A stretch of DNA of 64,000 bases, from NCBI GenBank assembly GCA_937916125.1, contig CALGGE010000066.1, forward strand, positions 27,908 to 91,907, written 5' to 3'. Shown in pieces: positions 9,977-32,379 of this stretch (the first letter of the stretch is position 1; the number at the start of each line of letters is the position of its first letter). The position numbers were made by a program, and so were the translations under genes. This DNA is from an uncultured Elusimicrobia bacterium (lineage in GTDB: Bacteria > Elusimicrobiota > Endomicrobiia > Endomicrobiales > Endomicrobiaceae). A model generated the notes under the pieces. The model did no database searches. It saw only the letters and a program-made list of their open reading frames with translations, and had not been told where the DNA came from.

Positions 9977-12900
9977 TTATGCCGCGGATAATAATGATTT
10001 TATATATTGCGTTGAGACTTCGGCAGATTTTACGACAGATACTTTTTTGCCGTATGTATCCATTAATAATTCCGGAATTCCCGTAAAGTCTGCAATTGCC
10101 GACGGAGAAACTTTTGTTATTTTGTATTCGTTCTGTCTTAAAATATTGTCCAAGTCTCCGTTAAGTCTTATTTTTATGGAATCCAAAAATTCTTTCGCCG
10201 TCATTTCGCTTTCGATTTCTTTTGTTTTGTAAATATCTTCCATGGTATTGCCGTTTAAAATATTCTGTATTGTAAGAATAAGTATTGCCTGAACCGTATC
10301 GGTTTTAATATTTTTCATTAATTTGTTTTCATCAATATCTATAATATTTGCAATATTTTTTGCGACGGTATTCATTACAACACCGCGGATAAAACCTACC
10401 GTTTCCTCATATTTTTCTTTTGCCGTCAAATATTCAATGTATGTTCTTGCATCATCACTGAATAATGATAAATTTAACTTTAATATTTCTTCTCTTAAAT
10501 ATCCGTTACTGTTTCCAATATCAACGGACAATATACCGCTGTCAATTATTTGTTTTACATCTTTTGCCGTATAATCAAACTTACGGCTTAATGCAGCGTT
10601 TATCCCCTTTTTAAATTTTTGCTCGTTTGTTTCTGCTCGCCTGAATTTTGATTTATTTTTATTTATAAACATTTTAGTATTTTCATCTATTACGACACTT
10701 ACAAAACTTTCCATTCTTAAAATTCTTTCAAAATAGTCGTCGGATATTTGTCTTTCAATATTCTTCAGTTTGCTCATATCAAACTCTTTTTTACCGAATA
10801 GAATACCGTTTATATCATCAACTATCGGTATTATTCCGTATTCATCAAATATATCAACATTATATAATCCGTAATAAATTTCATTACTGAATTTTATCGA
10901 TATTTTAGTATCTATACCTTTAGCTAATTTTATCGTTTTCAGCTTTTCCAAAAGTTCCAATGCTTTTTCCTTTTCGGTAATATCTTCGGCAATAATTCTT
11001 GCTCCGTCAAACAAAACTTCGGAAAACTCATCACTTCTGTCATAAGAAATTATGAATTTATATCCTGCATCCTGCAGTCTTTGCAATTCACGGTTATACT
11101 TTTCCGCTTGAGCCTTGCTTATTATAAAAGTTTTTGTTTCTGAGGCAATTTCTTCATTTTTGCATACTGCAGAAATATCAGTTATATTTCTTTCGGAGAT
11201 ATCAAGCTTTATTTCTTTGCCCGGAACGGTAATCGAATTTGTTATTTCATTTTTTAATTTATTTTGTATCGAATACAAAGTTTGCTCTTCAAGGTCTGCA
11301 AATACGATTGCCGTTTCAAAAGAATCGTTTTTCCTTGTATCGTAGTAAGCAGCAGTAATTAAATCCTGCAATTGCCGCTTATCAATATCAATGCCTTTTT
11401 TTGAATATACCGTCAATTTCCCGTCAGATTTATCATATTTAACACGAATACCTTTTTCAACATCAAGTATAAACCCGCCTCTTACCGTCTGTGTGGGTTC
11501 CGTTATTATTTCCATATTGACTACGATAATATTTGTTTCTGCAACAGCCAAACTTTGCAGGTAGTCTTTTTGTTTATAATCTTCTGTTATAACTATATTT
11601 TTGTCGATAATTCCGAATATTCCCGACCTGTTTTTAAAAACAGCATCAAACAATTCGTTAATAAATAACATTTGTCCTGCGATTTCAGAAACAAATTGTG
11701 AAACCGTATAATATTGTAAATTAACCCGCTTGACCGTATCATAAGAAACGTCCTTAATTTTTGAAATCAGGTTAGGCATAATATTCGCTATAATCCCGGA
11801 AACATATTCCGAAAACTTGTTGTTTATCGACGGTTTTATTGTTGCAAAATAATTCCAAACAAAATGTGCTGTCGTTTCGGTAATAAATAATGCAAAAAGC
11901 GAACCGGTGCCTATCCCTATCCCTATACTTAATGCTCTTATCACCCAAATCACAGGCGTCATTTTTGTTTGTATCGATAAAGGAAAATTATGTGCATTAA
12001 TAAAATTCGGAGTCCAGAAAACAAAAGTTTCAAGTAATACGCCTATTGCCACGCCTAATTTTGTTGTTTTGAAAAATTTCCCCGAATTTTCTTTGTATAT
12101 GCTTTTTATTATTTTTGAATTGCCTATTTTGGTCAATAAATTTTGCGTTGAAGGAAGCATAAGCTGTGCATATTTATTATAATTTACATCAACATACATA
12201 CCGTTTTCTTCCATAATAGGGTATATTCTCCCCGTGGTTTTGTTATCATCGTCTTCTTCTATTACGGCTCGAATTGATTTTACCAATGAATGATTTAATT
12301 CGTCTATTTGATCATTTGTTATAAAAAGAGTATTGTTCGACAAATATCTCGGAGCATTGGCAACATCTTTAAGAGATAATTTTCCGTTCATTTGTTTTAA
12401 TTCTTCCGGAGTTTTGGAATCCAGAAGTTTTATCAATGAGTAAAACAGATTTGATACTTTTATTGTTTTATTATCCGAATCCATTGTTTTTGTATAAGCA
12501 TAAACCGTTTCTTTTCCCGCATCGGTAATTATTTGAGGGAAAACGTCTATTCCGATATTTATTAATTCTTTAATAACATTTTCCGCAAATTTATAAGAAT
12601 GGCAGCTTGAAAACATTAATGTTATATTTCTTAAATTAACACCGTTATCATGAGCATTTATCAATGCTTGTGATATTTGTTTTACGGTAAAACCTCTTCC
12701 GGACGAATAGAATATTTCGTCATCCAAACCGTGTCCGTCAAAAATAAACAAGCCTTTTTCCTGACCGTATTCATTAAAACGTTCTATTCTGTGAAGAAAC
12801 ATATTTGCTTCTACCATTGTCTCGGTTACATGCATTCTTTTTACATATCTGAGAAGTGTTTTTTTGGATAACGGTTGATCTTTTCTTCTGTTGATATAGT

Positions 12901-15900
12901 CAACAATATCCTTTTTTACAACTACGCTTCCTTTTTCTTTTTCAAGATATTCCAATAATTCCGGAACATTTATCTCGTCCGTGTATTTTGTGTTTATAAA
13001 ATCCAAAACTTTATCTGCGAAAGAAATTTCTATATATTCAAATAAATCGGGTTCTACATCGAGTTTTTTTAAAATTTCTTCTATTCCCACAGGCGTAAAT
13101 CTTTGTGTTTTACCGTCAGCATTCTTTTCGTTATTATGTATTGAAAATATTGCCATTTTATTTACGATAAGGTAAAGGTCGGCAATAATGGCATCTAATT
13201 TATTATAATATTCCAAAGTATCAGCAATTATACTTTCTATTTTGTACGTCGGTATCGAAAATATATTGTCTCCCGATATTGAATATATTCTTCTGGCTAC
13301 TCTTATTGCCAGCTGATATTGACGTGTAATATCTTTTATGTCGTTTTGCTTACAGTAGTCTTCCATAGCCTTACTGAAAAACACCGACATGGAAAAAGCT
13401 TTGTTTTCAAGATCCAAAGAATCTATCCTATATGTTTCCAAATCATCAACCAGATCTACAAATTTTTGAAAATCAAAAGTTCTGCCGTACCGTACATCAA
13501 AATCACTGAATAACAAATCAATTACATATCTGTTATAAAATTCAACATATCTGAAATTTTCCAATATATATCCGTTAACTTTTTTCCCTTTAAAACTTTC
13601 AATATATTCTTCGGCAACTTCGCTGTTTTCTTTTAAATCTGCACGAGTGATCAATTTCATTAAATAATTAAAGTCTTCCTGTGTATAATTGAAATTTTCG
13701 GCAAGTATTAAGATAAATTTTAATTTTAACGGACTAAAAGATATACTATAATCATGTTCGGATTTTTTATAAAAATCAAATATAAGATTTCTGATTGATG
13801 AATTTAAATTTAAGAAATCGGATATATTTTCTCTTGTTTTTAACTCCGCAATAAATCTGTATTCGCAATAATTATACAATTTATCAAAATCGCTTATTGT
13901 ATATCCGTTTTTCTTTACGATATCCAAAAGAACCTGAAGCATAATTGAACTTATGTCGTCGGAATAAGTATCAAGTGCATACTCGTAAAAATCCGTAAAG
14001 CGGTTGCGTGAAATTTTGTCCATATTAAAAAACATATATATATATTCTTCTTTTTCAAGAAGAGTAATAATTTTGCAATATATTTCTTTTTGGTCATAAT
14101 TTATATTTGTAAATTCTAAAAGAAGTTTGTTTAATAAAGTCGTTGACGTTATTTGGTTGTTTCTTATATAATCGATTATATTTCTGTTGAATCCTGATGC
14201 TCTTACAACTTTATTTTGTAAATCTTTTACGTTTGCTTCTACGGAGGCAGAGTCCGCTTGTTTTTCGAATTCAATTTTGTTTTCTTCGGATAAAGCTTCT
14301 TTTCGTTCCGCATCATCCGTCTCTTCAAGGAAACTTATTATTTTTTGTCCCCTCTCGAATATCTCGAACGAGTCAAATATTTTATATAAATCATCAAGCA
14401 TATCGGAAATAAGAAGTAATGATTGTTTTGCCGTTCCTTTCTGCAACAAATCTATTACTCTTTGCAAATTCTCTTTATTGCTTATCAAAGTTTGTAAGTT
14501 TTTGATTTCTGACACAAGCTCCGGCGTAACTTTCTGTTTATGAAGGTCATCTACCGTTGCCTTAACGACTTCCGTTATTGTTTCTCGAATATCCCCTATA
14601 TCGTCACTTTCCAATATCTTTGCCGCAGCCAAATCCGAAATAAGTTGTATTCTTTCTTCGTCGTCAAGTTCGTTTATTTTCTGTTTCTGTTGAGGATAGG
14701 TAAGCCTATCATTTATTATCTGTTGTGCCGAAGGAGATATTGAGGCAACGGCAGGTGCTATCATTTGGAAAGATATTTTACTCTGTTCTTTTGCTATTTG
14801 ATAATATGTCTTTTGTGCAACATCTATACCATCGGAAACATTAGGTGTTATTACGATATAACTTACACCCTTTTCTTTCAACATTTCCGTTACGGTATTT
14901 GAATGGAAGCCTCCCGTTACAACAATATCCAACTTTTTAACATTTTTCATATTGGCAATAATTTTATTTATATCATTATCAGCTTTAGTATCAAAATGAT
15001 TTTCGGCAGGTTTGTTATCGTCATTGAACAAATTTTTTGCAAAATATAAATTTCTGTCATTGTTTATCTTATAGAACTTATCGGTTTCATCCATATATTC
15101 GTCCAACATGCTCAATACTCTGTTATCGGCATATTTATTCCACAACCGTTTATAAGTTTCTATATTTTCTTTGTAATAATTATAATCATCGGAAGTTATT
15201 TTACCTGTTACATAATCCCGCAAATATTTTTCAAAATTCGTCATAAAAACGATATCTCTTTGAACTTTCGTCTCGGAGAATCTTGTATTTATCTCTTCGG
15301 TAAGCTTGGCTTCTTCGCTTATCAAATCCAACGGATTTATTTTTTGACTTAATTCTATGTATCTGAAATATTTATCAAGTTCCGAATATTTGCCGCTTAA
15401 ATCCAAATTTTCCTGTCTGCACAGTTTTATTATGTATGTGTAAAGTTTATCGACTCCGGAAAAATTATCGGTATTATCAATTAACTGTTTGTAGGTGTTA
15501 TAAGGAAGTATTTGTTTCAGAAAAAACAACAAACTTTGCATTTGTTCCGTTATTTTTGAAAAATTAAGCCTGCTCTGCATATTGAGCAACATTATGTACG
15601 CAAAAGTATTTTCGTATTTTGTTAAATCTATTCCTAACTTATCTATATGTTTTGACAGTAAAGTATAATATTTTTGCGGTGAGAGTTTATCTTCTTTGAA
15701 TTTTTTTGAAAGGTTTTCAAGTTTAAATTGTCTCTTTGTATAATGTTGTTTTTTTAATTTTTGAGAATCTTCTTCAATCGCTTTCAATATTAAATCTATT
15801 TTTTCCTGATTTTCTATTATTTTACCGAATCTTTTTAAATTTTCCAAATAGGGTTCTTTTTCTTCCAATCCGTTTATTATTTCTGTTTTTCCGCTTTTTG

Positions 15901-16339
15901 CACTGTAATACTCGGCTCCTGTTAATCTTCCCGTTTCAAGGATTGTATCTAAAAGTTCTTCTTTTTTAGGGTTTTGGTTTATTTTGTCTGTCAACCAATT
16001 TGTGCTTACTTTACCGTAGGCACCTTCCAAATATATTTTGTTTATGCCGAATTTATTATCAAATGTTTCTATAATATTGCTTATATTTTTTTGTACTTTC
16101 GGATGACAGTGCAAATCCTGAATATTTATTATTACTCTGTCCGTTCCGGCATAATGAGCTTTTGTTATTTGTCCGTAACCGTACGGCAAAACAAAGTCAT
16201 CAAATATTTTACTATACCGATTTACTATTTCTTTGTTTATAATAATACTTGCCGTTGAAGGCTGAATTACAAATGATATTAACAAACTTATCGTTACAAT
16301 TAAAGAAATAAGTTTCTTAAATCTCATTATAATTTTCAT
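9977..16339 (-). CDS. giant membrane-anchored multidomain protein, paralog P1 (ChaN/TraB-like N-module; clan-CD-like His/Cys dyad; hydrophobic CPBP-like block; LLSAA tail)
   Basis: Start placed at MKIIMRFKK (GGAG 8 nt upstream); the track ORF extends to 16381. Signal/anchor peptide LISLIVTISLLISFVIQPSTAS. Motifs: INIQDLHCH (16103-16129), YLEGA, VVTGGFH (14903-14923), FIFDGHG...43 aa...SSCHS (12596-12748). TM block 11840-12070. No database search was run. Confidence 0.8.
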   Translation of the reverse strand: MKIIMRFKKLISLIVTISLLISFVIQPSTASIIINKEIVNRYSKIFDDFVLPYGYGQITKAHYAGTDRVIINIQDLHCHPKVQKNISNIIETFDNKFGINKIYLEGAYGKVSTNWLTDKINQNPKKEELLDTILETGRLTGAEYYSAKSGKTEIINGLEEKEPYLENLKRFGKIIENQEKIDLILKAIEEDSQKLKKQHYTKRQFKLENLSKKFKEDKLSPQKYYTLLSKHIDKLGIDLTKYENTFAYIMLLNMQSRLNFSKITEQMQSLLFFLKQILPYNTYKQLIDNTDNFSGVDKLYTYIIKLCRQENLDLSGKYSELDKYFRYIELSQKINPLDLISEEAKLTEEINTRFSETKVQRDIVFMTNFEKYLRDYVTGKITSDDYNYYKENIETYKRLWNKYADNRVLSMLDEYMDETDKFYKINNDRNLYFAKNLFNDDNKPAENHFDTKADNDINKIIANMKNVKKLDIVVTGGFHSNTVTEMLKEKGVSYIVITPNVSDGIDVAQKTYYQIAKEQSKISFQMIAPAVASISPSAQQIINDRLTYPQQKQKINELDDEERIQLISDLAAAKILESDDIGDIRETITEVVKATVDDLHKQKVTPELVSEIKNLQTLISNKENLQRVIDLLQKGTAKQSLLLISDMLDDLYKIFDSFEIFERGQKIISFLEETDDAERKEALSEENKIEFEKQADSASVEANVKDLQNKVVRASGFNRNIIDYIRNNQITSTTLLNKLLLEFTNINYDQKEIYCKIITLLEKEEYIYMFFNMDKISRNRFTDFYEYALDTYSDDISSIMLQVLLDIVKKNGYTISDFDKLYNYCEYRFIAELKTRENISDFLNLNSSIRNLIFDFYKKSEHDYSISFSPLKLKFILILAENFNYTQEDFNYLMKLITRADLKENSEVAEEYIESFKGKKVNGYILENFRYVEFYNRYVIDLLFSDFDVRYGRTFDFQKFVDLVDDLETYRIDSLDLENKAFSMSVFFSKAMEDYCKQNDIKDITRQYQLAIRVARRIYSISGDNIFSIPTYKIESIIADTLEYYNKLDAIIADLYLIVNKMAIFSIHNNEKNADGKTQRFTPVGIEEILKKLDVEPDLFEYIEISFADKVLDFINTKYTDEINVPELLEYLEKEKGSVVVKKDIVDYINRRKDQPLSKKTLLRYVKRMHVTETMVEANMFLHRIERFNEYGQEKGLFIFDGHGLDDEIFYSSGRGFTVKQISQALINAHDNGVNLRNITLMFSSCHSYKFAENVIKELINIGIDVFPQIITDAGKETVYAYTKTMDSDNKTIKVSNLFYSLIKLLDSKTPEELKQMNGKLSLKDVANAPRYLSNNTLFITNDQIDELNHSLVKSIRAVIEEDDDNKTTGRIYPIMEENGMYVDVNYNKYAQLMLPSTQNLLTKIGNSKIIKSIYKENSGKFFKTTKLGVAIGVLLETFVFWTPNFINAHNFPLSIQTKMTPVIWVIRALSIGIGIGTGSLFALFITETTAHFVWNYFATIKPSINNKFSEYVSGIIANIMPNLISKIKDVSYDTVKRVNLQYYTVSQFVSEIAGQMLFINELFDAVFKNRSGIFGIIDKNIVITEDYKQKDYLQSLAVAETNIIVVNMEIITEPTQTVRGGFILDVEKGIRVKYDKSDGKLTVYSKKGIDIDKRQLQDLITAAYYDTRKNDSFETAIVFADLEEQTLYSIQNKLKNEITNSITVPGKEIKLDISERNITDISAVCKNEEIASETKTFIISKAQAEKYNRELQRLQDAGYKFIISYDRSDEFSEVLFDGARIIAEDITEKEKALELLEKLKTIKLAKGIDTKISIKFSNEIYYGLYNVDIFDEYGIIPIVDDINGILFGKKEFDMSKLKNIERQISDDYFERILRMESFVSVVIDENTKMFINKNKSKFRRAETNEQKFKKGINAALSRKFDYTAKDVKQIIDSGILSVDIGNSNGYLREEILKLNLSLFSDDARTYIEYLTAKEKYEETVGFIRGVVMNTVAKNIANIIDIDENKLMKNIKTDTVQAILILTIQNILNGNTMEDIYKTKEIESEMTAKEFLDSIKIRLNGDLDNILRQNEYKITKVSPSAIADFTGIPELLMDTYGKKVSVVKSAEVSTQYIKSLLSAA

Positions 16340-16913: not shown

Positions 16914-16933
16914 AAATTTTGTAAAAATTTTAA

Positions 16934-22110: not shown

Positions 22111-22117
22111 TTTTTTT
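22111..22117 (-). other. A AAA AAA slippery heptamer followed by a 0-frame TAA, at the junction of P2 fragments B and C
   Basis: The minus strand reads CGG TTT ATA ATA AAA AAA TAA. The -1 frame continues ATA AAT AAA GAA GAA TCG ... directly into the 1,493-aa ORF. Confidence 0.7.
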
Positions 22118-22902: not shown

Positions 22903-23286
22903 TTTACGGCTTTAAGCCAGTTGAAATCCAAATCTTTTACGGCACCCTCAAGATATATATTTTCAACATTATAATTTTTTGTCAAAAAATCCAAAATTAC
23001 GGCAATATTTTCCTGAGTATTTTTATCGGAGTGCAAATCCTGTATATTAATCAACGTTTTTTCGGCACCTATATATACATCATCAATAACCTTACCTAAG
23101 TCGGCGGGGATAAAATAATCCGCATTATCAACACTTACGGAAGTAATATTTACGGGTGCAATAACCGATGCACAAATATCACAACATATATAATTAACAA
23201 TACAAACCGTTAGAATACATGAAATCAGTTTTTTGTAATTATACATATTTTCTCCGTGCTGCAAAATATATAAAAATTTTACTGTT

Positions 23287-26200
23287 TTATGCTGCGGAAA
23301 GAATATTTTTAATATTATCAATATATCCGTCGGACTGACCGAAGCTCGATGTATCAAATTCTTTTATTGTTACAGGCAATAAGCCTATTTCTCCGCTCTT
23401 AAAATTAAATATACCGCCGTTTAATTTAGCCAACACCGTGCGATCTTTGTTTATTCTGTTGACAAGTATATTTTCCAATACACCGAAACCTAATAATTCT
23501 TCATATTCGGAAGGAATAATAAACCTTGCACTTTTTTGTTCTCTTGTTTCCAAATATACGGGTATGGACTGCGTATCATTAAGAGGGTTGGGAAGATGAA
23601 TAAAAGCCTGTTGTTGCGAATCCGCATTCCCCGCACTTAATGATATTTCATATTTAGTGTCATGTTGGACCGTAATAACATTTTCTTCCGAAACATCCTC
23701 TTCATTAACTGCATTTGTGGTAACAGGTCTTCTTTGAAGAATAAAAAGTTTACCGTCTTTAAATCCGAATTCAACATCAACGGCATAAAAAACATCGTCT
23801 TCCAATAATAACAGAACTTTAATAAGTTGTTTTATTTCTTCATAATTTAAAGTTCTTTCTTTTGCACCTTTATCCACAAAAGTTAATTTTACGCCTTCCC
23901 GTGTTGAAACTATTTTATAATCTTTGGTTGCAACGGAGTACTCCAATACATTCCCTGTTTCCATATTTACGGTTATTGTATCGGGAGTAAGTTTTCCCGA
24001 AACTATACCCTCTCCCAGTCCGTAAAGAGTTTCTATTGTGGTATTCCCGTATTTGTCTCTGCTGAAAGCAACTCCCGACTTATCAACATCTATCATAGTC
24101 TGTACCAACACCGCAGGAGAAACGATTTGTCCGCTGTTTATCATATATTTTATGCTTCTTTCTGAATAAAAGGATTCCCAACAGCTCAGCAAGGCATCAA
24201 AGAGATTTCCTCTGTCAACATTCAATACTGTTTCCCCCATACCGGCAAAAGCATTGTTTGCACTGTCTTCTCCGACACCGGAAGAACGTACGGAATATTT
24301 TGAATCTCCCAACGTTTTTAAAACCATATCTTCCAGTTCTTTCCTTAAAGAATCGGTTTCCTTAATTTTATTTTTGGAGTTTTCAATAAGGGAGATTATA
24401 ATTTTTGCGAAATTTTGAGCTAACTGATATTCTCCGTTATTTATCGCATTTTTAAAAGATTGTGAAAGCATTAAAAATTGTTGTTTCTGTCCGAGCATAT
24501 CAAAGAACCTCACAAAAACATCATAACTTATGCCTACACCTTCGGGAACAACTACATTATCTTCTTTTTCCAACAATCTGTGTATTTTTGCCAGTTCAAC
24601 GGTTTTAGAACCGAATTTATAAGAATCCCGTTCATATATATCATCAAAGCTCAGGATATCTCCTTTCGGACTATATACTCCGTAATTATAAGTACCGTAG
24701 AGTCTTAATTTTAACAGGTTTATAACATTTTCCGTATCGGTTTTTAATTCCTGCAAATAAGCATCTTCTTCAGTTTCCGGTATAAACATTTCATTCACAT
24801 TTGCCAATTGCAACATACCGACAATCTCATTTAAATCTTCCGGCAAATATTCATATTTTTCCAGCATAGTTCTGCATTCTTTTAAAAATACTTTCAAAAA
24901 TACAATTAAACTCTCTTTCGTATTTTGTGAAATTTCAAAAACTTCTTTTCTAATCATATCCAATTCTTGTCTGTATTCCGGAGATTTTATAAACTCCAAT
25001 TTCTCAAGCAAAGTCCTTACTATGGAATAGGCTATATTAGGATTGGCGGTTGTTTCCAAATTAGTTACGGCTTCATTCATAACTTTTACTTTATCCTGAA
25101 TATAACTTTCGTTCAGTTCTTTAATTTTATCTTTTATGGTTTGCGGCATATCCTGAGCAAAAAGCATATCCAAAGTTTGTGCCATTCGCGTATCACCGAT
25201 AGTTTGAAAATATATATATTCAACAATTCTTCCTATATTTTCAGCAACCGAATTTTTTATTAAGAAATCTTTTATATTTTCGGCGTCATCTTTTTCTATA
25301 TATGACTGTAAAAGTTTTAATGTCGAATCTTCTATATCGTCAAAAAGAAGTATATGTCCGGTTTCTCCGTTTAATAAAATAATAGAACCTTCACGTAAAA
25401 TTTTATCTTTGCTTTTGACTTTTCTTATACTTAAATTACCCAATTGAAAAGGATTTCCCGAAGAATAATAACATAAAATATTCAAACCCTTATCTTTCCA
25501 ACTTGCACCGTTAATAATAACCGACGGAGTATGATATTCCCTTGTAGTAATTGCGGCATGGCTTAAAACTCCTCCGCTTGTGGTTATTATTGCTTTTGCG
25601 GTTTTAATTCTTTCTACATCGTCGGGCGTAGTATAAGGTGCTACAAAAATGCTGTTTCCGTCAACATTATTCTTGTCAAACGTTACATATCCGGAGACAT
25701 ACGTACCGTTGCCTGCAGATATAGGTACGGCTCTGAGTTCCGGAGAGGAAAGGTTCTGTGTTTGTCTGTGAAGAAGATTGCTTATTCTATCCTGTTCCGA
25801 CGGACTTAACAGTTCCTGCCGAGGAATATCAAAACCTTCGTTACGTAAAATTTCGTAAAGTTCTTCAAATGTAACGGATTTTCTTCCCGAAAGAGAAACA
25901 TATTCCACAACGGAATATTTTAACCTTTTTATGGATGGTTTCGTAAGTCCTTTTACCGATAAAAAATCGCCGTTTTGCAGTTTCATATAACCGCTTACCG
26001 CCAATAAATCACCTATGTAACCGATAGTTTTGAATTTAAAGTTTGTATTCGGAATAAGGTTTATCAATTTACTTTTATTTATAGCGGCTTCTTCATCATC
26101 GGAAACGGCTTCCGCCAAATAAGAAACAACGTCATAATCTTTGTTTCTGCTCAATATACCGTTCTCATTCAAAAAAATTCTTCCTACGGCAAAACTTCTT

Positions 26201-29200
26201 TCTATAACATTATTGAACATATCATCCAACACATTTTGGGTTACTCTGAATCCAAACTCTTCAGGTATATCGTCGATCAAATCCAAAGATTGCAATACTT
26301 GTTTTAACCAATTCTTATCAAGGGAATTTCTTTGCGGACGAGCGGTAATTTTGTTTTCCGGCCATCCCGTAACCCCGTTCGGCATATATCCGTACCAAAT
26401 ATCTCCTTCCATAAATTTTTCAACCAAACTGTCAAAAGTTCTCCTGTAAGAATCCTCGCTGTATCTGTTGGACAATTCATCCAAATCCCAATCAAGCATA
26501 ACGGAATAACTGAACAAAGATACAACTTTAGTTGCAATATCTATAAAATCCATATCTTTATTAAATCCGTAATCCGTACTTAAAGTTGCTTTTAAACTGT
26601 ATGCGGCATCATTGCCCGCAGGTCGATTTATATCATTTTCCACAAAGAAACCGAATTTTTCCAATATCGTCGAGAAATATCTTATTCTTTCGGCGTTTCC
26701 GGTTTTCTTATCGCTTTCATGATAAGAGATGGTTATGGTTTTATCGGTATCAGCAAAATTCATAAATATATCAACACTGTGTGCAAACAATCTTGTCGTC
26801 CATACCAACAAATTATCCATACAAATAAAATCATCTATCTGATATTCATGTTTCTCTGCGGTTTTTTGTCGCGGGAGCTTATTTTGGGATAATCTTCCAA
26901 TAAAATCAAGTATATCCGGATTTAATTTATTTTCCGACAAATCATAAAGTTCCACTCCCGTTCTATCCAAACCGCCGGTATCCGAATATCCGATTGAAAT
27001 ACGAGGATTTCGATGAACGGCAACAACCGTTTTTATTGCTTTATCGCCTATTTCTATAATATCCTTTACTGTCTCTTTGAAATCCGAGATCGACGTTTGA
27101 TGAACCGCATTTATAAGAGTATGTATTTCGGTTATTTCCTCTATATGTTCGCTGTTCCATTGTTTTAAAGCCATATTCCGTTTTATCATATCTTTTGTCA
27201 AACTTGTCGTAAATAAAAGTTCTCCGTCCTGTTCCGGACGTATCGACAAATTATATAAAATATTGTTCAATGCGGTACGTGCATAATTCCCGTGTTCGGG
27301 ATTTATTAAGCTTAAAGATACTATCATTTTAGATAAAATTTTTACAAGTTCCGCAAAATCTTTTTCGGGATTTTTCGATGCAGACAAACCGTCAAGCAAA
27401 GATAAAACAAGATTGTTGTCATTAAGTATCGACTGCAAAGTATTGAATTTATCTCTTATTATCGCAACTTCTTTATTTTGTTTATTCGTAGTTCCGCTTA
27501 CGGTATAAAGTATGGGCGGTTCCTGCAAAATTATATTACCTGAAGTAAACATATCTTTAGGCAAATATTTTATGAGACGGGAAAATCTGTATTGTCCTCT
27601 CATCTCCGAAACAAACGCATCGGATACCGGCTTCAAAAAATAAGGAAGGTTGTTTTCCTCACATAATTCATTAAGCCTGTTTATGTCAAACAGATTATAA
27701 TTCTGCAAAGAAATATACAGCTCGGTCGAAGCCATATTAACAAGTTCGGATATAACATATCTTCTTGTTTTGTTATCAATATTTTTATTTTCCAAAATTA
27801 ACAACAATTTTTTTATTACGGATATTGCCAATACACGTCCGTTTTCTTTTTTACCGAGCAAATCATTACAAAACGACGATAAATCAAATAAAGTACAGTT
27901 ATCGACAACAATTTCCGCAAGGTCTTCGACATCGGATATAAGACTGTCTTTTTCAGGTAGCGGAATGCTCACATTCTTAATATTTGCTTTATAAACCGCA
28001 TCAACAAATCTTTGAAGCGTTTTCCTATTTAATCCCGGACCGTATATTGTACTCGTATCGTCATTCCAAGAATTTCTCTTGGCAGGATCTTCAACACCCG
28101 TATTTGCAAACATATAAGAATAAACAGAAATGTTTTTGGGATTTTTTTTCGAAAGTTTTTCAAACACATTATAGAACGTTTTTTCTCTTGATACGTATTC
28201 CAGAGAATTTTCATCCAAAGTATTTTGAGCAATCGGAGTATACACGACAAGGAGAAGCCGTTCCGTTATACCATTGCAAATATAGGTGCCGAAATCTTTA
28301 ATATCATTATCTTCCGAATTATAAAATTTACCGGAAATATCCATCATACCGTCAAGCAATCCGTAGAATTTTTCATTGTCGGAATTAACATCATACGAGT
28401 CAAACAGTATTTTAATCAAACTGTCCAACATCGTTTTTACGGTTCTTGTTCCGGTTTTCTTTTTTACTTTTGTAAAATCAAAAATAAACGGCAAAAAATA
28501 AGTTATACTATCTTCTTTTTGTTCCTCTTGTTTCAATATTATTTTCAACAACTCTTCCAACAATGTTTCCAGAAGGATACTGTTGCCGTCGTTAATTTTT
28601 TCAGCCAATTCTTCCATATTTGATAAAATTTCGGATACTCTTTCTCTATCCTGTTCCGCCGTAAAAGGTAATGCCTTTTCTCTGAAAACTCTGACATTAT
28701 TCGAAAGACTTTCGGAAAGAGATTTATCGACTTCTTTACCATCGGAAACGGCAAAATAATATTGTTTTAATGCATCATAATCTTTCAAATTATTTTGAAT
28801 TTGATACGGAATATCTTCATCTTTGGAAATAAATTCTCTGCTCAACAATTTATTTATTCCGTAAGGAATAAAATCCGAATTAATTTTATATGTTTCTCCG
28901 ATAAATTTGGAAACGTCGGCTAAGACAATATATTTGTCTCTTAATTTTCCTTTATGTATAAACAGAGAATCAACCATATGATAGAAAAAAGAATTGTTTG
29001 ATTTGTAAACATCTTCAAGTGCTATGAAAGGAATTAAAGAAAAAAGTAAAAAATCACTCATGTAAAAACTGCCCCAATTATCTATACCGTTCTGCTCGCA
29101 AAAAACTTTAAGCTTTCCGTAAACGGTAGAAACATCATTATAGTCGCCGTCTCTGAAATAATATTGGGGTTGATAATTGTGTCTGTTATTTTCTTTTACC

Positions 29201-32200
29201 AAATCAAGTATGGCATCTATTTGTTCAACGACGATTTTATATCTTTCAACTTTTTGTTCGGGCAAATTCGATAAATTTTTTATAATCTTTTTTACTTCGG
29301 CATAATCATATCCGTCAAGTAACGACAGTATTTCAATTATCCTGTCAACAACACTTTGTTCAACAACCGGAACGTCCGACATTTGTTCAATGTCTTTGGT
29401 TTGATAGAATTCATCACTTAATTGTTCTTCTTCATTTTTATCATCTTTGCTGCCGGTTATAACGGACAACATATCATTAAACCGACCTCGTGTTAAAGCT
29501 CTTATATTATATATTGAATGTAAAACGGTTGTAACAATCGGTGCCAAAAGCATATACTGAGGGAAAATAAACGACAACACTATATAAATCCAAGTCAACG
29601 ATGTTGCCGGAGAAAGCAAATCTTTCCAATCTCTTTTTTGGGAACTTTTTGTAATTATATCGTTCAACGTATGTGCGTAAGCAAATCCGATTGTTCCGGT
29701 AAATGCGGTTACAATCGCAGGAATTATCGGAAAAGGAGTTGTAAATACAAACGTGGTCAGCAAAATAAAAGGTGCGGCTCTAAAAATACCTTCTTCAATT
29801 ACTGGAGCGACAACAATTGTATAAATTAATCTGACAACATCACTTGCGTTCTTAAAAAAATTTTTCGCTATTACCAAAGGTTGACTTTTAGGATAAATCC
29901 TTGTCGTTAAGAAATCCTTGTCTCCTGTAGAAGATACATATCCGCCTTTCAACGTAAAAGATGTCTTTATTTTAGCAAGTTCGCCGGCTTTATTTATTTC
30001 ATAAATTTTTTCGTTCAGCAGTCTTATAACTTCGGCAAGTTTTTCCTTTGCCTGAGGCGTATCCTGAAAAAGGGATTCATCAAAAATTCTTCCTATGGTC
30101 ATATGCACTATTTTCGGAACTCTGTAATTCGGATCAAGATTTTCAAAATCTTTACGCAAGTTCAACATTTGTGCAATCAAATCCGTATCGGTAATCGTAT
30201 AAATTAAAACACCGTCGGGCATAAGCTTCAATGTACCTGCAAGAGATGTTTTAATACTCGGAAAAGTTTCTCCCAAGTTTTGGGTTGCCGCAAAAATGGA
30301 ATGAGTTTTGTTTTGATAAAGGAAGGACTCATCCATTTGTTGCGGCGTTGCACCTGACGAGTCATAGCCCACCGTCATGTGCAGTTGTTTATAAGGCATT
30401 AAGGAGACGGCGTCTCCCGATATTTCGCTTAAAGGTTTAAGAATATACCTGTATAATTTTTTCCTTGCCGATGTTGCAGGTTCAAGCTCTAAGGACGGAG
30501 CTGCATATTTATTTGCTTTAATCCTTTTAATCATATTAACGGTTTTTTCGATATCAATATTCGCATATTCCTTAATTTCTCCGTCGGAATAAATATAATT
30601 TATCGTACTTTCGGTACCTTTGTTAGCGTTATCTCTGTATTTAACAACAAACTCCACATTGCCAGTTTTAACTTCCGAAGATAAAATTTGCCATTCCAAA
30701 ATTTCAACATTACCGTAAAAAGTATTTTGTTTATCAATAATTTTTTCCGCTATAATTTGATAAATTTCCCGCTTTAAATCTTCTTCGGAATAATTTTGAA
30801 AAGCCTCACTTTGTACGGCATAAAAAAAACCTTCCATTACTTTCCTAAAACTGACATTTAAAGGTTCTTGCGTCAACGGTTCTATGTTTATGGTATTTTC
30901 AAGTATTGAAGAATAATATAAAACATTGTCCGTATAAAGTTGTCTTGCCGCTTCGGTTGATTCCGTTACTTTCGGAGTTATTATTACGTAAGATACTTTC
31001 TTGTCCAGAAAAATTCTCTCCAGTCCTCTTGTATGAAATCCTCCTGTAACAACAAGCGATATTTTCCTTGAAGGAGTTTGCGTCGAAAAATCGGAAGATT
31101 GACGAATGGCAGAGAAAAAGATTTGATCTCTCAAAATATTGTTTCGGTGATACTTGGACAGCAAGTCATAATACGTATCCAAACTTTGTATCGGTTGACT
31201 CGGCAAATACGACGGCCAAGTTGTCTTGAATTTTTTGTACCCTTCTTCAAAATTATAATATTCATCCGAAGAAATTTCTGCGGTAAAATAATTTCTTATT
31301 ACGGGAACGAACTCTGCAAGAAAATTAACTTCTTTTTCGTATTTTGTTCTTCCCGCTTTTATGTAAAGTTCATTTATAAAATCTTCTTTTTCTTTTACAA
31401 GTTCTATCGGATTTATTATGTCGCTTACGGCAAGCGAAGCAAAAAAACTTTCAAGATTCTTAAGTTTTAAATTTTTGGTTATTTCAAATTTATTGTTAAG
31501 TTTTATTAAATCGTAAGAAATATTTTCAAAATCGGTAAATTTATTACTTCTTTTAAAAAGTTCGGAGTAGCCGTCATAGTCAAGCTTATTTTTAAGTGAT
31601 GAAACAAAGCGGGCAAATTCACCGGAGATTTTCCCGTTATTTATAACATCGGTTTTGTCAAACAATGAAATATACAAAGATAAATTTTTATATTTTTCAA
31701 CTGAAACATCAAGATCTTCGGCAAGCCTGATTAATTCATTATAAAAACTCTTCGTCTTAATTTTTTTATTATCATACAAACTTATAATTCGTTGTATCTT
31801 TCTCGCTTTAGGGCTTGCATAATCTTTCCTGACTGAATTTATCTCTTTTTCAATATTTTTGCATACGGCTTCAATCTCTGGAGAAAGTGTTATTATTTCT
31901 CCCAACAGTTTAATATTTTCTTTATATAAACTTTCATTTTCTATACCGGCGACAAAATTCTTCTTATTTTTTATCGTTGAATAATATTCCGTTCCGCTTA
32001 AATTACCGGAATTCAAAAGATTTTCTACGATTTTTACACCGAATTTATTATCTTTCAATTCCGAAAGCCACGAAGTATCGACGATATTAAATGCTCCTTC
32101 CAAATAAACCTTATCAAGTCCGTATTTTGTATCGAGATATTCCAATATCGAAAAGATTTTCTTCTGTGTTTCGGCGTGACAATGAAGATCCTGAATATTT

Positions 32201-32379
32201 ATGACAATGTCCCCGTCATCAAAAATTTTTGACGAAGTTATTTTTCCCAAAGATGAGGGTATGAATTGTTGCATACCGTCAGAGAAACGTGCAGGCACGG
32301 CAAAACCGCCCTTTGGAAACAGTGTAATAACCAAAGAAAACGAAATCATTAAAGAAACTATCTTTTTAATCATTTTCAT
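23287..32379 (-). CDS. giant membrane multidomain protein, paralog P3 (ChaN/TraB-like N-module, 2H phosphoesterase, CPBP intramembrane protease, phosphohistidine swivel domain, PPDK-type ATP-grasp, ILSAA tail)
   Basis: 3,030-aa uninterrupted ORF. Signal peptide: MKMIKKIVSLMISFSLVITLFPKGGFA. N-module motifs: INIQDLHCH (32176-32202) and VVTGGFH (31033-31053). 2H motifs: LHMTVGY (30364-30384) and VHMTIGR (30088-30108). CPBP motifs: EEGIFR (29779-29796), FAYAH and HSIYN (29506-29520). Swivel domain: TTSGGVLSHAAITTREYHTPSVI, with His at 25558-25560. ATP-grasp: FGSKTVELAKI...VRSSGVGEDSANNAFAGMGETVLNV...GLGEGIVSG (about 23700-24690). Confidence 0.85.
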   Translation of the reverse strand: MKMIKKIVSLMISFSLVITLFPKGGFAVPARFSDGMQQFIPSSLGKITSSKIFDDGDIVINIQDLHCHAETQKKIFSILEYLDTKYGLDKVYLEGAFNIVDTSWLSELKDNKFGVKIVENLLNSGNLSGTEYYSTIKNKKNFVAGIENESLYKENIKLLGEIITLSPEIEAVCKNIEKEINSVRKDYASPKARKIQRIISLYDNKKIKTKSFYNELIRLAEDLDVSVEKYKNLSLYISLFDKTDVINNGKISGEFARFVSSLKNKLDYDGYSELFKRSNKFTDFENISYDLIKLNNKFEITKNLKLKNLESFFASLAVSDIINPIELVKEKEDFINELYIKAGRTKYEKEVNFLAEFVPVIRNYFTAEISSDEYYNFEEGYKKFKTTWPSYLPSQPIQSLDTYYDLLSKYHRNNILRDQIFFSAIRQSSDFSTQTPSRKISLVVTGGFHTRGLERIFLDKKVSYVIITPKVTESTEAARQLYTDNVLYYSSILENTINIEPLTQEPLNVSFRKVMEGFFYAVQSEAFQNYSEEDLKREIYQIIAEKIIDKQNTFYGNVEILEWQILSSEVKTGNVEFVVKYRDNANKGTESTINYIYSDGEIKEYANIDIEKTVNMIKRIKANKYAAPSLELEPATSARKKLYRYILKPLSEISGDAVSLMPYKQLHMTVGYDSSGATPQQMDESFLYQNKTHSIFAATQNLGETFPSIKTSLAGTLKLMPDGVLIYTITDTDLIAQMLNLRKDFENLDPNYRVPKIVHMTIGRIFDESLFQDTPQAKEKLAEVIRLLNEKIYEINKAGELAKIKTSFTLKGGYVSSTGDKDFLTTRIYPKSQPLVIAKNFFKNASDVVRLIYTIVVAPVIEEGIFRAAPFILLTTFVFTTPFPIIPAIVTAFTGTIGFAYAHTLNDIITKSSQKRDWKDLLSPATSLTWIYIVLSFIFPQYMLLAPIVTTVLHSIYNIRALTRGRFNDMLSVITGSKDDKNEEEQLSDEFYQTKDIEQMSDVPVVEQSVVDRIIEILSLLDGYDYAEVKKIIKNLSNLPEQKVERYKIVVEQIDAILDLVKENNRHNYQPQYYFRDGDYNDVSTVYGKLKVFCEQNGIDNWGSFYMSDFLLFSLIPFIALEDVYKSNNSFFYHMVDSLFIHKGKLRDKYIVLADVSKFIGETYKINSDFIPYGINKLLSREFISKDEDIPYQIQNNLKDYDALKQYYFAVSDGKEVDKSLSESLSNNVRVFREKALPFTAEQDRERVSEILSNMEELAEKINDGNSILLETLLEELLKIILKQEEQKEDSITYFLPFIFDFTKVKKKTGTRTVKTMLDSLIKILFDSYDVNSDNEKFYGLLDGMMDISGKFYNSEDNDIKDFGTYICNGITERLLLVVYTPIAQNTLDENSLEYVSREKTFYNVFEKLSKKNPKNISVYSYMFANTGVEDPAKRNSWNDDTSTIYGPGLNRKTLQRFVDAVYKANIKNVSIPLPEKDSLISDVEDLAEIVVDNCTLFDLSSFCNDLLGKKENGRVLAISVIKKLLLILENKNIDNKTRRYVISELVNMASTELYISLQNYNLFDINRLNELCEENNLPYFLKPVSDAFVSEMRGQYRFSRLIKYLPKDMFTSGNIILQEPPILYTVSGTTNKQNKEVAIIRDKFNTLQSILNDNNLVLSLLDGLSASKNPEKDFAELVKILSKMIVSLSLINPEHGNYARTALNNILYNLSIRPEQDGELLFTTSLTKDMIKRNMALKQWNSEHIEEITEIHTLINAVHQTSISDFKETVKDIIEIGDKAIKTVVAVHRNPRISIGYSDTGGLDRTGVELYDLSENKLNPDILDFIGRLSQNKLPRQKTAEKHEYQIDDFICMDNLLVWTTRLFAHSVDIFMNFADTDKTITISYHESDKKTGNAERIRYFSTILEKFGFFVENDINRPAGNDAAYSLKATLSTDYGFNKDMDFIDIATKVVSLFSYSVMLDWDLDELSNRYSEDSYRRTFDSLVEKFMEGDIWYGYMPNGVTGWPENKITARPQRNSLDKNWLKQVLQSLDLIDDIPEEFGFRVTQNVLDDMFNNVIERSFAVGRIFLNENGILSRNKDYDVVSYLAEAVSDDEEAAINKSKLINLIPNTNFKFKTIGYIGDLLAVSGYMKLQNGDFLSVKGLTKPSIKRLKYSVVEYVSLSGRKSVTFEELYEILRNEGFDIPRQELLSPSEQDRISNLLHRQTQNLSSPELRAVPISAGNGTYVSGYVTFDKNNVDGNSIFVAPYTTPDDVERIKTAKAIITTSGGVLSHAAITTREYHTPSVIINGASWKDKGLNILCYYSSGNPFQLGNLSIRKVKSKDKILREGSIILLNGETGHILLFDDIEDSTLKLLQSYIEKDDAENIKDFLIKNSVAENIGRIVEYIYFQTIGDTRMAQTLDMLFAQDMPQTIKDKIKELNESYIQDKVKVMNEAVTNLETTANPNIAYSIVRTLLEKLEFIKSPEYRQELDMIRKEVFEISQNTKESLIVFLKVFLKECRTMLEKYEYLPEDLNEIVGMLQLANVNEMFIPETEEDAYLQELKTDTENVINLLKLRLYGTYNYGVYSPKGDILSFDDIYERDSYKFGSKTVELAKIHRLLEKEDNVVVPEGVGISYDVFVRFFDMLGQKQQFLMLSQSFKNAINNGEYQLAQNFAKIIISLIENSKNKIKETDSLRKELEDMVLKTLGDSKYSVRSSGVGEDSANNAFAGMGETVLNVDRGNLFDALLSCWESFYSERSIKYMINSGQIVSPAVLVQTMIDVDKSGVAFSRDKYGNTTIETLYGLGEGIVSGKLTPDTITVNMETGNVLEYSVATKDYKIVSTREGVKLTFVDKGAKERTLNYEEIKQLIKVLLLLEDDVFYAVDVEFGFKDGKLFILQRRPVTTNAVNEEDVSEENVITVQHDTKYEISLSAGNADSQQQAFIHLPNPLNDTQSIPVYLETREQKSARFIIPSEYEELLGFGVLENILVNRINKDRTVLAKLNGGIFNFKSGEIGLLPVTIKEFDTSSFGQSDGYIDNIKNILSAA

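Follow-up and report, generated by a model that had tools for sequence, protein, structure and literature searches.

Three giant genes share one locus

The window (the whole 64,000-nucleotide stretch analysed, from an uncultured Elusimicrobia bacterium) harbors three giant genes on one strand, here called P1, P2 and P3, together with a small gene encoding a predicted membrane protein:

9977-16339, minus strand: P1, intact giant gene, 2120 aa
16374-16913, minus strand: small partner gene, immediately upstream of P1; three hydrophobic segments (3-TM)
17579-23246, minus strand: P2, disrupted paralog, a pseudogene in three reading-frame pieces
23287-32379, minus strand: P3, intact giant gene, 3030 aa

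P1 and P3 were delimited by ORF listing and translation, and both proteins have exact matches in public collections, that of P3 on a 106,873-bp contig. The pieces of P2, from the same listing, occupy 22815-23246, 22108-22836 and 17579-22060 on the minus strand. Between P1 and P2/P3 lies a TM1266-like gene of opposite orientation. Alignment of the N-terminal regions gave an E-value of 5e-66 for P1 against P3 (27% identity over 584 columns; BLASTP), while the N-region of P2, rebuilt with a single copy of a duplicated 32-nt stretch and with the frame-shifted piece joined on, matched P3 with E 7.5e-37 and P1 with E 8.4e-33. This similarity is far above chance and bears out the original prediction that the three are paralogs with a common N-terminal module of about 500 residues. 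Judged from their sequences, which are only 25-27% identical, the three are old paralogs and not products of a recent tandem duplication.

Beyond the N-module and a short C-terminal tail, the bodies of the three proteins are unrelated, except that those of P1 and P2 match weakly (hhalign P 0.005). Direct reading of the sequences reveals signal-peptide-like N-termini in P1 and P3, and hydropathy indicates one strong hydrophobic segment in P1, one in P2 and at least three in P3. The divergence of the bodies thus stands as first described; that all three cross the membrane is a prediction from hydropathy only.

Two lesions make P2 a pseudogene: a tandem duplication of 32 nt, and a deletion accompanied by a frameshift. 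Both were located, in agreement with the view of P2 as a decaying copy:

22838-22901, minus strand: lesion 1, 32-nt tandem duplication, two copies with one mismatch, which shifts the frame
22060-22140, minus strand: lesion 2, frame change; the helical insert has lost about 35-55 residues just N-terminal of the Arg block

Removal of one duplication copy from lesion 1 restores ...KMLTDGKITGAEYF..., and the distal piece (1493 aa) starts just ahead of the GGYH block. The replacement of HCH by HSD in P2, also taken as a sign of decay, has lost that meaning, since CHSD also stands at this position in P0059 (868 aa), a relative that seems to be uninterrupted; other relatives display further variants there.

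The N-terminal module and its relationship to the TIKI superfamily

The module was delimited in the two intact proteins:

14780-16222, minus strand: P1 N-terminal module, residues ~40-520, AlphaFold model
30880-32262, minus strand: P3 N-terminal module, residues ~40-500, with QDLHCH, YLEGA, GTEYY, RD and TGGFH blocks

In the translations, all conserved blocks were recovered in the order and at the positions first reported: INIQDLHCH at 16103-16129 in P1 and 32176-32202 in P3, VVTGGFH at 14903-14923 and 31033-31053, respectively, and IIITGGYH at about 21992-22020 in P2. Across 37 diverse modules, Q74, D75, E105, G106, E143, R429, G476, G477, H479 and P499 are invariant and H77 is conserved in at least 90%; in 33 of 35 modules, His and Glu are spaced 28 residues apart. 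The AlphaFold model of the P1 module is confident (pLDDT 88.5, pTM 0.84), with strands at residues 56-63, 68-74, 101-108, 155-159, 469-475 and 493-499, whose ends bear the conserved motifs. Residues 161-437 are modeled as helical and split the alpha/beta core into two halves, as expected from the long helical insert anticipated at this position. In one relative (P0058), a domain of about 165 aa lies ahead of the hydrophobic segment, which argues that this segment is a true membrane anchor.

A kinship of the module with the Tiki/TraB/ChaN/EreA proteins had been proposed by eye. The TIKI superfamily is characterized by a signature of two His and two Glu with a conserved basic residue, and by a parallel-sheet core (PMC6254334). 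Residues D75, H77, E105, R429 and H479 of the module match this signature as acid-x-His, Glu, Arg and His in the same order (PMC6254334), and the 28-residue His-to-Glu spacing equals that of EreB and RRSP. However, the first acidic residue is Asp and not Glu, the Gly usual in GxxH is Gln, and the helical insert, which makes up over half of the module, is without counterpart in known members of the superfamily. When the model was compared with 350,542 PDB chains (Foldseek), EreC (6xcs) ranked first with E 0.14, Bcr135 (2rad and 3b55) ranked 11 and 13, and ChaN (2g5g) ranked 19. These Ere/ChaN-type matches are weak (E 0.14-2, TM-scores 0.12-0.22), and only three distinct Ere-family sequences are available in the PDB. 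No competing alpha/beta fold was found in the PDB with E < 6, the remaining matches being helical proteins aligned to the insert.

Structure comparison thus favors the proposed kinship, with EreC as top match, whereas none of the HMM comparisons was significant. Pfam and NCBIfam contained no match to the module, nor did a profile search of PDB sequences return one; comparison with YbaP and with an Ere profile by hhalign was non-significant (P 0.1-0.5), although the best of these pairings fell on the expected motifs (RN.YF/RD.YMA, YLEGA/FAFEFG and GGFHS/GALH); and in a local hmmsearch rank test Ere proteins and YbaP scored no higher than unrelated decoys.

Such uniformly negative sequence and profile comparisons, the lack of any Foldseek match with E < 0.1 and the unmatched insert are what one would expect if the head were a lineage-specific alpha/beta and helical domain with a non-catalytic role as anchor, sensor or assembly element, its motif resemblance being convergent or coincidental. 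We consider this improbable: the hypothesis was set before the search, the tiny Ere/ChaN set nonetheless provided 4 of the top 19 of all chains, including rank 1, no rival alpha/beta fold emerged, and the invariant acid-x-His, Glu, Arg and His follow the order and spacing of the superfamily, which points to catalysis rather than scaffolding. Based on the model and these residues, the N-module is probably a highly divergent member of the TIKI/erythromycin-esterase/ChaN/TraB superfamily.

Variable bodies and a conserved partner gene

Several modules could be assigned in the bodies of P3 and P1:

29506-29841, minus strand: P3 CPBP (Rce1/Abi-like) intramembrane protease domain (PF02517, E 0.0029, 18.3 bits, under the 22.4-bit cut-off)
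25360-25659, minus strand: P3 PEP-utilising enzyme mobile (phospho-His swivel) domain (PF00391, E 3e-12)
23692-24615, minus strand: P3 PPDK_N ATP-grasp (nucleotide-binding) domain (PF01326, E 2.6e-51)
11840-12061, minus strand: P1 hydrophobic/TM region, residues ~1427-1500, from hydropathy
9980-11659, minus strand: P1 C-terminal 560-aa module, comprising an alpha/beta region, a TIM-barrel-like domain, a helical bundle, a disordered linker and the tail

P3 reads, in order, signal peptide/anchor, N-module, a small beta region, a HxT..HxT region, the CPBP-like TM domain, about 1280 aa without assignment, His-swivel, ATP-grasp and tail. Its CPBP-like domain contains all of the EEGIFR, FAYAH and HSIYN motifs as well as hydrophobic segments. 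The ATP-grasp domain, which comes after the swivel domain, has 5hv2, 5hv1 and 5fbs as best PDB sequence matches (E ~1e-29); these entries are deposited as phosphoenolpyruvate synthase, and we take them to be Listeria rifampin phosphotransferase. The rifamycin-inactivating phosphotransferase model NF041857 is among the NCBIfam matches of P3 (E 1.9e-36), and the unit of swivel and ATP-grasp is of the kind known from rifampin phosphotransferase.

The TM region of P1 carries degenerate CPBP-like motifs, read by eye (LETFVFW, FINAH, HFVWN), and this block is common to many family members. The C-terminal module of P1 closes at least 15 other members (BLAST); its AlphaFold model (pLDDT 78, pTM 0.80) retrieved the TIM barrels PcrB, class II aldolase and OMP decarboxylase in Foldseek (probability 0.97-0.99, E 0.02-0.05). 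More generally, body modules are shuffled among family members (BLAST). A CPBP domain with the full catalytic triad occurs in 11 of 103 long members, HD-GYP and SNF2 modules are also present in the family, and some members are named phosphofructokinase, phosphoglucomutase or racemase in their sources.

The small gene noted beside P1 is real and conserved at other loci. BLAST found homologs directly upstream of a giant gene in about 25-30 loci, and three clusters of upstream 3-TM proteins cover 20, 19 and 10 loci, about 49 of 78. These proteins have a conserved ..LPRS[IV]S.. motif C-terminal of the third TM segment.

A short C-terminal tail marks the family

The shared tail first noted is present in all three paralogs, though short (eight residues):

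9980-10003, minus strand: P1 tail, IKSLLSAA
17582-17605, minus strand: P2 tail, IRKILSAS
23290-23313, minus strand: P3 tail, IKNILSAA

No such tail ends the window's other complete reading frames of at least 80 codons, except for a spurious plus-strand frame ending in VSAS. An A[AGS] ending was found in 70 of 99 members of at least 1500 aa, against 3 of 517 neighboring ORFs, and the tail in 11 of 15 closed ORFs of the genomic loci; its consensus is ...[IM]-L-x-A-[AG]-COOH. In P1 it is preceded by a low-confidence stretch of the AlphaFold model (pLDDT < 50). The family tail has Leu at -4, whereas ssrA tags have it at -3. No protease, unfoldase or PDZ gene was linked to family loci.

A large family in Endomicrobia

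At an E-value threshold of 1e-3, the N-module heads no fewer than 9,389 protein clusters, and at a threshold of 1e-30 it heads 6,237. It lies at or near the N-terminus, with matches starting no later than about residue 205, and the proteins reach 7,833 aa. In a one-genome-per-species GTDB set, 256 genomic loci were found, several per genome. Almost all hits that carry a name belong to Endomicrobia/Elusimicrobiota. The family is very large and previously undescribed; it appears to consist of giant mosaic inner-membrane proteins specific to Endomicrobia/Elusimicrobiota, and in a sample of ten giants all six named proteins came from Endomicrobiales/Elusimicrobiota MAGs. The N-module of P1 shares 64-67% identity with its rumen orthologs, compared with 72% for the flanking TM1266-like gene and 62-65% for a flanking small ORF. 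The module thus diverges much like its neighbors, contrary to the idea of a rapidly evolving family.

Discussion

The original prediction also spoke of an effector family, and a polymorphic toxin system, in which a conserved trafficking or processing head delivers variable payloads to competitors or host and the multiple copies and pseudogene record an arms race, would explain why the head is conserved while the bodies are highly variable and shuffled, why genomes carry multiple copies and tandem pairs, and why P2 has decayed. The TIKI superfamily does include the toxin/effector domains RRSP, PMT and HopBA1 (PMC6254334), and exported proteins with YD/RHS-like repeats lie upstream in 15 loci; however, the RHS_repeat match reaches only E 0.3. 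The extreme C-terminus, where polymorphic toxins should vary, is conserved, as are the last ~500 aa in the P1 type; no small downstream immunity-like gene was found, the conserved small gene being upstream; no secretion-system genes were found within the window; and the N-module keeps pace with neighboring genes. P3 also has, besides ATP-dependent domains, an integral-membrane CPBP domain whose motifs are intact; neither suits a secreted passenger. An effector role is thus rather unlikely.

Still less likely are fully exported, adhesin-like surface giants in which signal peptide and C-terminal peptide form a two-part sorting system (analogous to a signal peptide plus T9SS CTD, LPXTG or PEP-CTERM) and the predicted TM segments are not inserted: giant size, a conserved N-terminal signal combined with a conserved motif at the extreme C-terminus, as is typical of sorted surface proteins, and an upstream small membrane protein that could serve as sorting factor are set against a tail of only about 8-12 residues without TM helix or beta-domain, the full-triad CPBP domains, modules (ATP-grasp, swivel, HD-GYP, SNF2) and source names of cytoplasmic type, and searches of family members that detected no adhesin-type repeats.

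The best explanation overall, to which we would give an even chance, is that an exported hydrolase head is carried by a membrane-spanning multi-enzyme, which has a recognition tag at its C-terminus. Each protein comprises a putative Sec-type signal peptide/anchor with a module of about 480 residues, a shuffled body and, after a disordered linker, a short C-terminal peptide. The head, a predicted alpha/beta core with Asp-x-His, Glu, Arg and Gly-Gly-Phe-His interrupted by the helical insert of about 270 residues, would be exported and tethered on the outer face of the cytoplasmic membrane, acting there as a peptidase or esterase. The body would re-enter through the TM block, placing the ATP-dependent modules in the cytoplasm; this topology is proposed from hydropathy and the positive-inside rule only. 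The small apolar tail might tag all members for recognition by an AAA+ unfoldase or a C-terminal protease of the PDZ type, a role that we regard as possible but doubtful. If the tail does act in this way, the whole family would share one processing or turnover step.

A family of giant genes with a common head

The three co-oriented giant genes P1, P2 and P3, which together take up ~21 kb of the 64-kb window, are related through an N-terminal module of ~480 residues, referred to here as the head (residue numbers follow P1). P1 and P3 share 27% identity across their first ~580 residues (E 5e-66), and the rebuilt head of P2 aligns with those of P3 (E 7.5e-37) and P1 (E 8.4e-33); the similarity of the three N-terminal regions, claimed originally from motifs whose coordinates all agree with the translations, is thus borne out. 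The genes and lesions discussed below are as follows.

Genes and lesions in the window
6831-8075, minus strand: AAA_14/DUF4143 ATPase gene, just past the HydE-like gene
8440-8787, plus strand: addiction-module antidote-like HTH gene, just past the HydE-like gene
8861-9889, minus strand: HydE-like radical-SAM gene, downstream of P1
9977-16339, minus strand: P1, 2120 aa
16374-16913, minus strand: small ORF encoding a 3-TM protein, directly upstream of P1
17134-17421, plus strand: TM1266-like [FeFe]-hydrogenase regulator gene, between P2 and the small ORF and convergent with P2
22815-23246, 22108-22836 and 17579-22060, minus strand: P2, in three frame pieces
22838-22901, minus strand: first lesion of P2, a 32-nt tandem duplication with one mismatch, GATGAAAAA[G/A]TCAGAAACAATATTATTTACAA
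near 22060-22140, minus strand: second frame change of P2, coinciding with the loss of ~35-55 residues of the helical insert
23287-32379, minus strand: P3, 3030 aa
46986-63674, minus strand: fourth giant ORF, 5562 aa, without Pfam match

P2 is a pseudogene, since the 32-nt duplication and the second frame change with its deletion disrupt the head, and its description as a decaying copy was therefore correct. Dropping one copy of the duplication restores the frame through GKITGAEYF, and the 1493-aa distal ORF starts shortly ahead of the GGYH block. Tandem duplications of this kind can in principle revert; the second lesion, unlike the first, is a deletion and is not revertible. The pairing of P3 and P2 is not peculiar to the window: L016 and L078, two loci from other genomes, likewise carry two head-bearing giant genes in tandem.

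The neighbouring genes are of the ordinary chromosomal kind: P3 has Obg, L21 and BirA on its upstream side, and the small ORF and P1 are flanked by the HydE-like and TM1266-like genes; the order TM1266-like gene, small ORF, P1 is kept in a syntenic locus from a red-deer rumen MAG (L004). The AAA_14/DUF4143 ATPase gene and the antidote-like HTH gene may form a small mobile or toxin-antitoxin islet. Proteins identical to P1, P3 and the distal piece of P2 are found in public collections, all on one 106,873-bp contig, and the nearest relatives come from rumen Endomicrobiaceae ('Ruminimicrobiellum'), with 64-67% identity in the head. PADLOC models gave no match for P1, P2, P3 or the small ORF, leaving a role in anti-phage defence without support. 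The fourth giant ORF was rejected as a member of the family: it lacks the head and has no modules in common with P1-P3. It displays SF2-helicase motifs (GFGKT at residue 2728, DEVH at 2867 and QVYGRVTRHSG at 3221), an Ala/Gly-rich hydrophobic block at residues ~1680-1760 and the C-terminal end ...NIHAIAASA, and it is nearer than the P1-P3 family to the giants of Omnitrophota that combine TM segments with a divergent SecA-DEAD helicase.

Family size, partner gene and C-terminal tail

A profile search of 1.84 billion representative proteins recovered 9,389 protein clusters with the head at E <=1e-3, among them 6,237 at E <=1e-30. The head lies at or near the N-terminus (match start within about the first 205 residues), and the longest such protein has 7,833 aa. 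Ten of the giants were sampled; the six among them that carry a name all derive from Endomicrobiales/Elusimicrobiota MAGs and often bear a wrong name taken from an internal module (6-phosphofructokinase, phosphoglucomutase, Asp/Glu racemase, TPR, HEAT). The survey of related genomes that the original prediction had called for, conducted with one genome per species, found 256 head loci, several per genome; the 79 that were kept and listed all stem from Endomicrobia/Elusimicrobiota assemblies, and in nearly all scanned loci the head opens a giant ORF. In two relatives the head is an ORF of its own: in L002 that ORF has 652 aa and lies 108 nt ahead of a 2253-aa ORF with the C-terminal end VRSILAAA (L002:86-8914), and in L003 it has 687 aa and shares 53 nt with an ORF of at least 10,327 aa (L003:10001-22064). 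Split genes, frameshifts from sequencing or programmed frameshifts could explain this separation of head and body (the body being everything between head and tail).

The small 3-TM gene that precedes P1 is real. Its homologs lie directly upstream of a giant gene elsewhere (best match 65% identity, E 3e-69) and form three clusters, found at 20, 19 and 10 of 78 examined loci, respectively; the similarity between the small ORF and the 176-aa ORF upstream in L003 is not significant. Two further genes recur upstream of the partner gene, 1-3 kb ahead of the giant gene (e.g. L045, L039, L031): an exported protein of ~540-685 aa with YD/RHS-like repeats in 15 loci and an N-terminally anchored protein of ~253 aa in 13 loci. 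Neither is found in the window, and the RHS identity of the former was not retained, the Pfam RHS_repeat match reaching only E 0.3.

P1, P2 and P3 also end alike, in IKSLLSAA, IRKILSAS and IKNILSAA, respectively. This shared C-terminal octapeptide, the tail, holds across the family, with the consensus [VYI]-[RK]-[AS]-[IM]-L-[ASG]-A-[AG]: an A[AGS] end is present in 70 of 99 members of at least 1500 aa, as against 3 of 517 neighbouring ORFs, and the tail is found in 11 of the 15 closed giant ORFs of the genomic loci. In the AlphaFold model of the last 560 residues of P1 it follows a low-confidence linker.

Mosaic bodies

The bodies diverge after the head, as had been noted: those of P1, P2 and P3 are unrelated save for the last ~8-11 residues and a weak similarity between P1 and P2 in a KFI...DG..D block (hhalign P 0.005). 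Blocks of P1 turn up at differing positions in other members; its last ~500 residues, which contain a TIM-barrel-like domain according to AlphaFold and Foldseek, form the C-terminal module of at least 15 other members, and the P3-type arrangement is found again in six. Neither the P1 body (residues 531-2120) nor the 1493-aa distal piece of P2 has sequence relatives in the PDB. At residues ~1190-1250 of P1 (window ~12590-12772), FDGHG...SSCHS resembles by eye a caspase-type His/Cys dyad, and at residues ~655-790 of P3 (30010-30417) two HxT motifs, LHMTVGY and VHMTIGR, stand ~95 residues apart; neither the caspase-like dyad nor a 2H phosphoesterase found Pfam support at E up to 1, and both are kept as resemblances at motif level.

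Two other parts of P3 resemble known modules. Residues 847-958 contain the motifs EEGIFR, FAYAH and HSIYN within a hydrophobic stretch. CPBP/Rce1-like intramembrane proteases were sought by EExxxR, FxxxH and HxxxN on consecutive TM helices together with a PF02517 match, and this region scores 18.3 bits against PF02517, under the 22.4-bit cut-off. The triad occurs in 11 of 103 long members and is thus a shuffled module rather than a hallmark of the family. Elsewhere in P3, a PPDK_N ATP-grasp domain (E 2.6e-51) stands behind a phospho-His swivel domain (E 3e-12); the two are known from dikinases of the rifampin phosphotransferase/PEP synthase type. The best solved relatives of the PPDK_N domain (5hv2, 5hv1, 5fbs) were deposited as phosphoenolpyruvate synthase; we take them to be Listeria rifampin phosphotransferase. 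P3 is not a PEP synthase or pyruvate phosphate dikinase: the domain order is reversed, with the swivel ahead of the ATP-grasp, PEP-utilizers_C and the PEP/pyruvate TIM-barrel are not found, equivalog scores are far below the cut-offs (e.g. 173 bits against 883), and the unit sits inside a 3030-aa membrane protein.

Conservation and predicted structure of the head

In an alignment of 37 diverse heads, Q74, D75, E105, G106, E143, R429, G476, G477, H479 and P499 are invariant and H77 is conserved in at least 90%; R429 is followed by N or D. The AlphaFold model of the P1 head (pLDDT 88.5, pTM 0.84) has an N-terminal hydrophobic helix and six strands with intervening helices: strands 56-63, 68-74, 101-108 and 155-159 precede a helical insert of ~270 residues (161-437), and strands 469-475 and 493-499 come after it. 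The conserved motifs are at strand ends in this model, and R429 is in the final helix of the insert.

The original prediction read this module as related to TIKI, TraB, ChaN and EreA proteins, a reading that the residue signature and the structure search favour and that all HMM and profile comparisons fail to support. Members of the TIKI superfamily have a core built on a central, mainly parallel beta-sheet with flanking helices, and a 2His/2Glu signature with a conserved basic residue, which in RRSP corresponds to E3900, H3902, E3930, R4001 and H4030 (PMC6254334). D75, H77, E105, R429 and H479 of the head occur in the same order. The head thus carries the 2His/2Glu signature, but with Asp rather than Glu as the first acid; the conserved basic residue, sought 25-30 residues before the second His, is provided by R429, the Arg-to-His spacing being 25-32 in seven heads and 44-52 in most others because of a variable insertion. 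The His-to-Glu spacing is 28 residues in 33 of 35 heads, 28 in both EreB (H46-E74) and RRSP (H3902-E3930), and 26 in YbaP.

When the head model was compared with the PDB by Foldseek, EreC (6xcs) ranked first among 350,542 chains (E 0.14), Bcr135 ranked 11th and 13th and ChaN (2g5g) 19th, although only three distinct Ere-family sequences are present in the PDB. These matches are weak (E 0.14-2, TM-scores 0.12-0.22); nevertheless, such a ranking is very unlikely to arise by chance, because the family had been named before the search. The remaining matches are helical noise from the insert, and among the best 50 of the 69 matches with E <=10 there was no competing alpha/beta fold, nor were RRSP and PMT present.

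Sequence methods gave a different picture. Pfam and NCBIfam searches with P1, P2, P3 and the small ORF left the head without a match. PF05139, PF01963 and PF04187 matched none of the 37 aligned members at E up to 10, the sole recurrent Pfam match at that threshold being DUF1722 (7 members), which probably falls in the helical insert. A head profile retrieved only coiled-coil noise from PDB sequences. With hhalign, run on the full-length head, the core only, the N half and the C half in local and global modes, no comparison was significant: P was 0.49 against E. coli YbaP (TraB family) and 0.1-0.5 against a verified alignment of 27 Ere sequences, and the best local alignments landed on the expected motif pairs at P 0.1-0.5. 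The HMM-HMM comparison with the Ere and TraB families, on which the original prediction had counted, is therefore negative. Core-only HMMs from 161 members, run in a local hmmsearch, failed to place Ere proteins or YbaP ahead of unrelated ORFs. As the HMM, hhalign and HMM rank tests are all negative, the head, judged by sequence, is not a member of PF05139, PF01963 or PF04187 and would at most be a new family of the superfamily. On the model and the signature, we consider it fairly probable that the head represents a novel, highly divergent family within the TIKI/Ere/ChaN/TraB superfamily. Since every sequence test failed, a head that is unrelated to the superfamily and non-catalytic keeps a low probability; the invariant acid/His/Glu/Arg/His set argues instead for a predicted active hydrolase, peptidase or esterase.

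Discussion

The best structural match of the head is the Ere family (EreA/B/C and Bcr135/136; PF05139), which belongs to the TIKI superfamily. Both have a strand with an acid-x-His motif and, 28 residues on, a second strand that closes with Glu; both also have a helical lid separating the two halves of the core and a helix with R[DN] ahead of a strand and a His motif. However, there is no detectable sequence similarity: the head has the motifs QDLHxH and GGFH where Ere enzymes have GExxH and AHNxH, its insert reaches ~270 residues, and it is N-terminally anchored and fused to thousands of residues, whereas Ere enzymes are soluble proteins of ~420 aa. The TIKI/TraB/PrgY/GumN (PF01963) and ChaN (PF04187) proteins follow the same catalytic-signature logic; QRNLAW and VGALH of E. 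coli YbaP resemble DRNLYF and TGGFH of the head, and the likeness of ChaN 2g5g rests on its Foldseek rank. TIKI and PrgY are membrane-tethered and active outside the cell. Proteins of these two Pfam families are nevertheless only 250-500 aa long and lack a large helical insert, their HMMs miss the head, and the N-terminal position of its anchor sets the head apart from them.

With respect to architecture, giant MARTX-type toxins offer a parallel, their RRSP/PMT C1-C2 domain being a TIKI-fold hydrolase with 2His/2Glu and Arg inside a mosaic of several thousand residues (PMC6254334). In MARTX toxins, which are secreted by a T1SS, the TIKI domain is a single internal effector, whereas the head is invariant, N-terminal and placed behind a Sec-type signal. 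The 'Archaeovorins' of Omnitrophota (bioRxiv 10.1101/2023.11.21.568195) are likewise mostly unannotatable TM mosaics of several thousand residues from uncultivated small-genome bacteria, with domains visible only by structure prediction, but that study describes different N-terminal features and mentions neither this head nor the [IM]LxA[AG] tail.

The N-terminus of the giants, with basic residues, a hydrophobic core of ~16 residues and a small-x-small site, is like a Sec signal peptide or anchor, and one relative (P0058) has a ~165-aa domain ahead of its hydrophobic segment; on these features the head probably lies on the outer side of the cytoplasmic membrane. In P3, the ATP-grasp and swivel unit would have to face the cytoplasm, and the protein would consequently cross the membrane through its CPBP-like block. 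As for the tail, tags of the ssrA-like or Tsp type consist of an exposed C-terminus with a small apolar end (..LAA-COOH) that is read by ClpX, Tsp or Ctp. The tail resembles them, being a small apolar end behind a disordered linker, and by analogy it may be a shared recognition tag for PDZ-type C-terminal proteases or AAA+ unfoldases. The family loci have no linked protease, unfoldase or secretion genes, and neither the window nor any of 54 related loci yielded a tmRNA gene. Head, tail and small upstream protein might conceivably make up a pathway of their own for the biogenesis or processing of giant multi-enzyme membrane proteins, one that seems confined to Elusimicrobiota; in one version, the TIKI-like head, or a partner that the small protein recruits, would act on the ...L-x-A-A C-terminus of the same or a neighbouring molecule, trimming it or linking molecules head to tail. 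This is a speculation to which we give very little weight. If true, it would yield ordered membrane-tethered assemblies of cytosolic-type enzymes (phosphofructokinase, phosphoglucomutase, dikinase and racemase modules).

The original prediction saw here a rapidly evolving envelope or effector family. A polymorphic toxin/effector family would fit the mosaicism and the copy number, but the divergence rate is ordinary, the C-terminal tip is the conserved part rather than the hypervariable one, integral-membrane and ATP-dependent modules are present, and no immunity gene lies downstream: P1 is followed by the HydE-like gene, P3 by P2, and P2 by the convergent TM1266-like gene. We therefore regard the toxin reading as improbable. 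In view of the enzyme modules, the giants are unlikely to be sorted surface proteins that are exported in full.

An unusual wealth of huge proteins has already been noted for the phylum Elusimicrobiota (PMC11573180). We found in the literature neither a description of the P1-P3 family nor an organising principle for the huge proteins of this phylum, and the head is unrecognised by the curated libraries Pfam and NCBIfam. What is described here is an undescribed family of giant membrane proteins whose head would be a novel variant within a known enzyme superfamily, membership in which we hold to be reasonably likely. The head offers a likely catalytic site and the tail a short candidate recognition signal. 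Should the head be confirmed as a TIKI-type hydrolase, the superfamily would gain a very divergent and abundant branch with a 270-residue insert. The family also provides an annotation handle for genes now called 'hypothetical' or mis-named, such as the '6-phosphofructokinase' of 7,422 aa. Genes with the head probably account for a noticeable share of the coding capacity of small-genome rumen and termite-gut Endomicrobia, and the head, marking at least 9,389 clusters, together with the C-terminal peptide and the partner gene, supplies an organising principle for the huge proteins of Elusimicrobiota.
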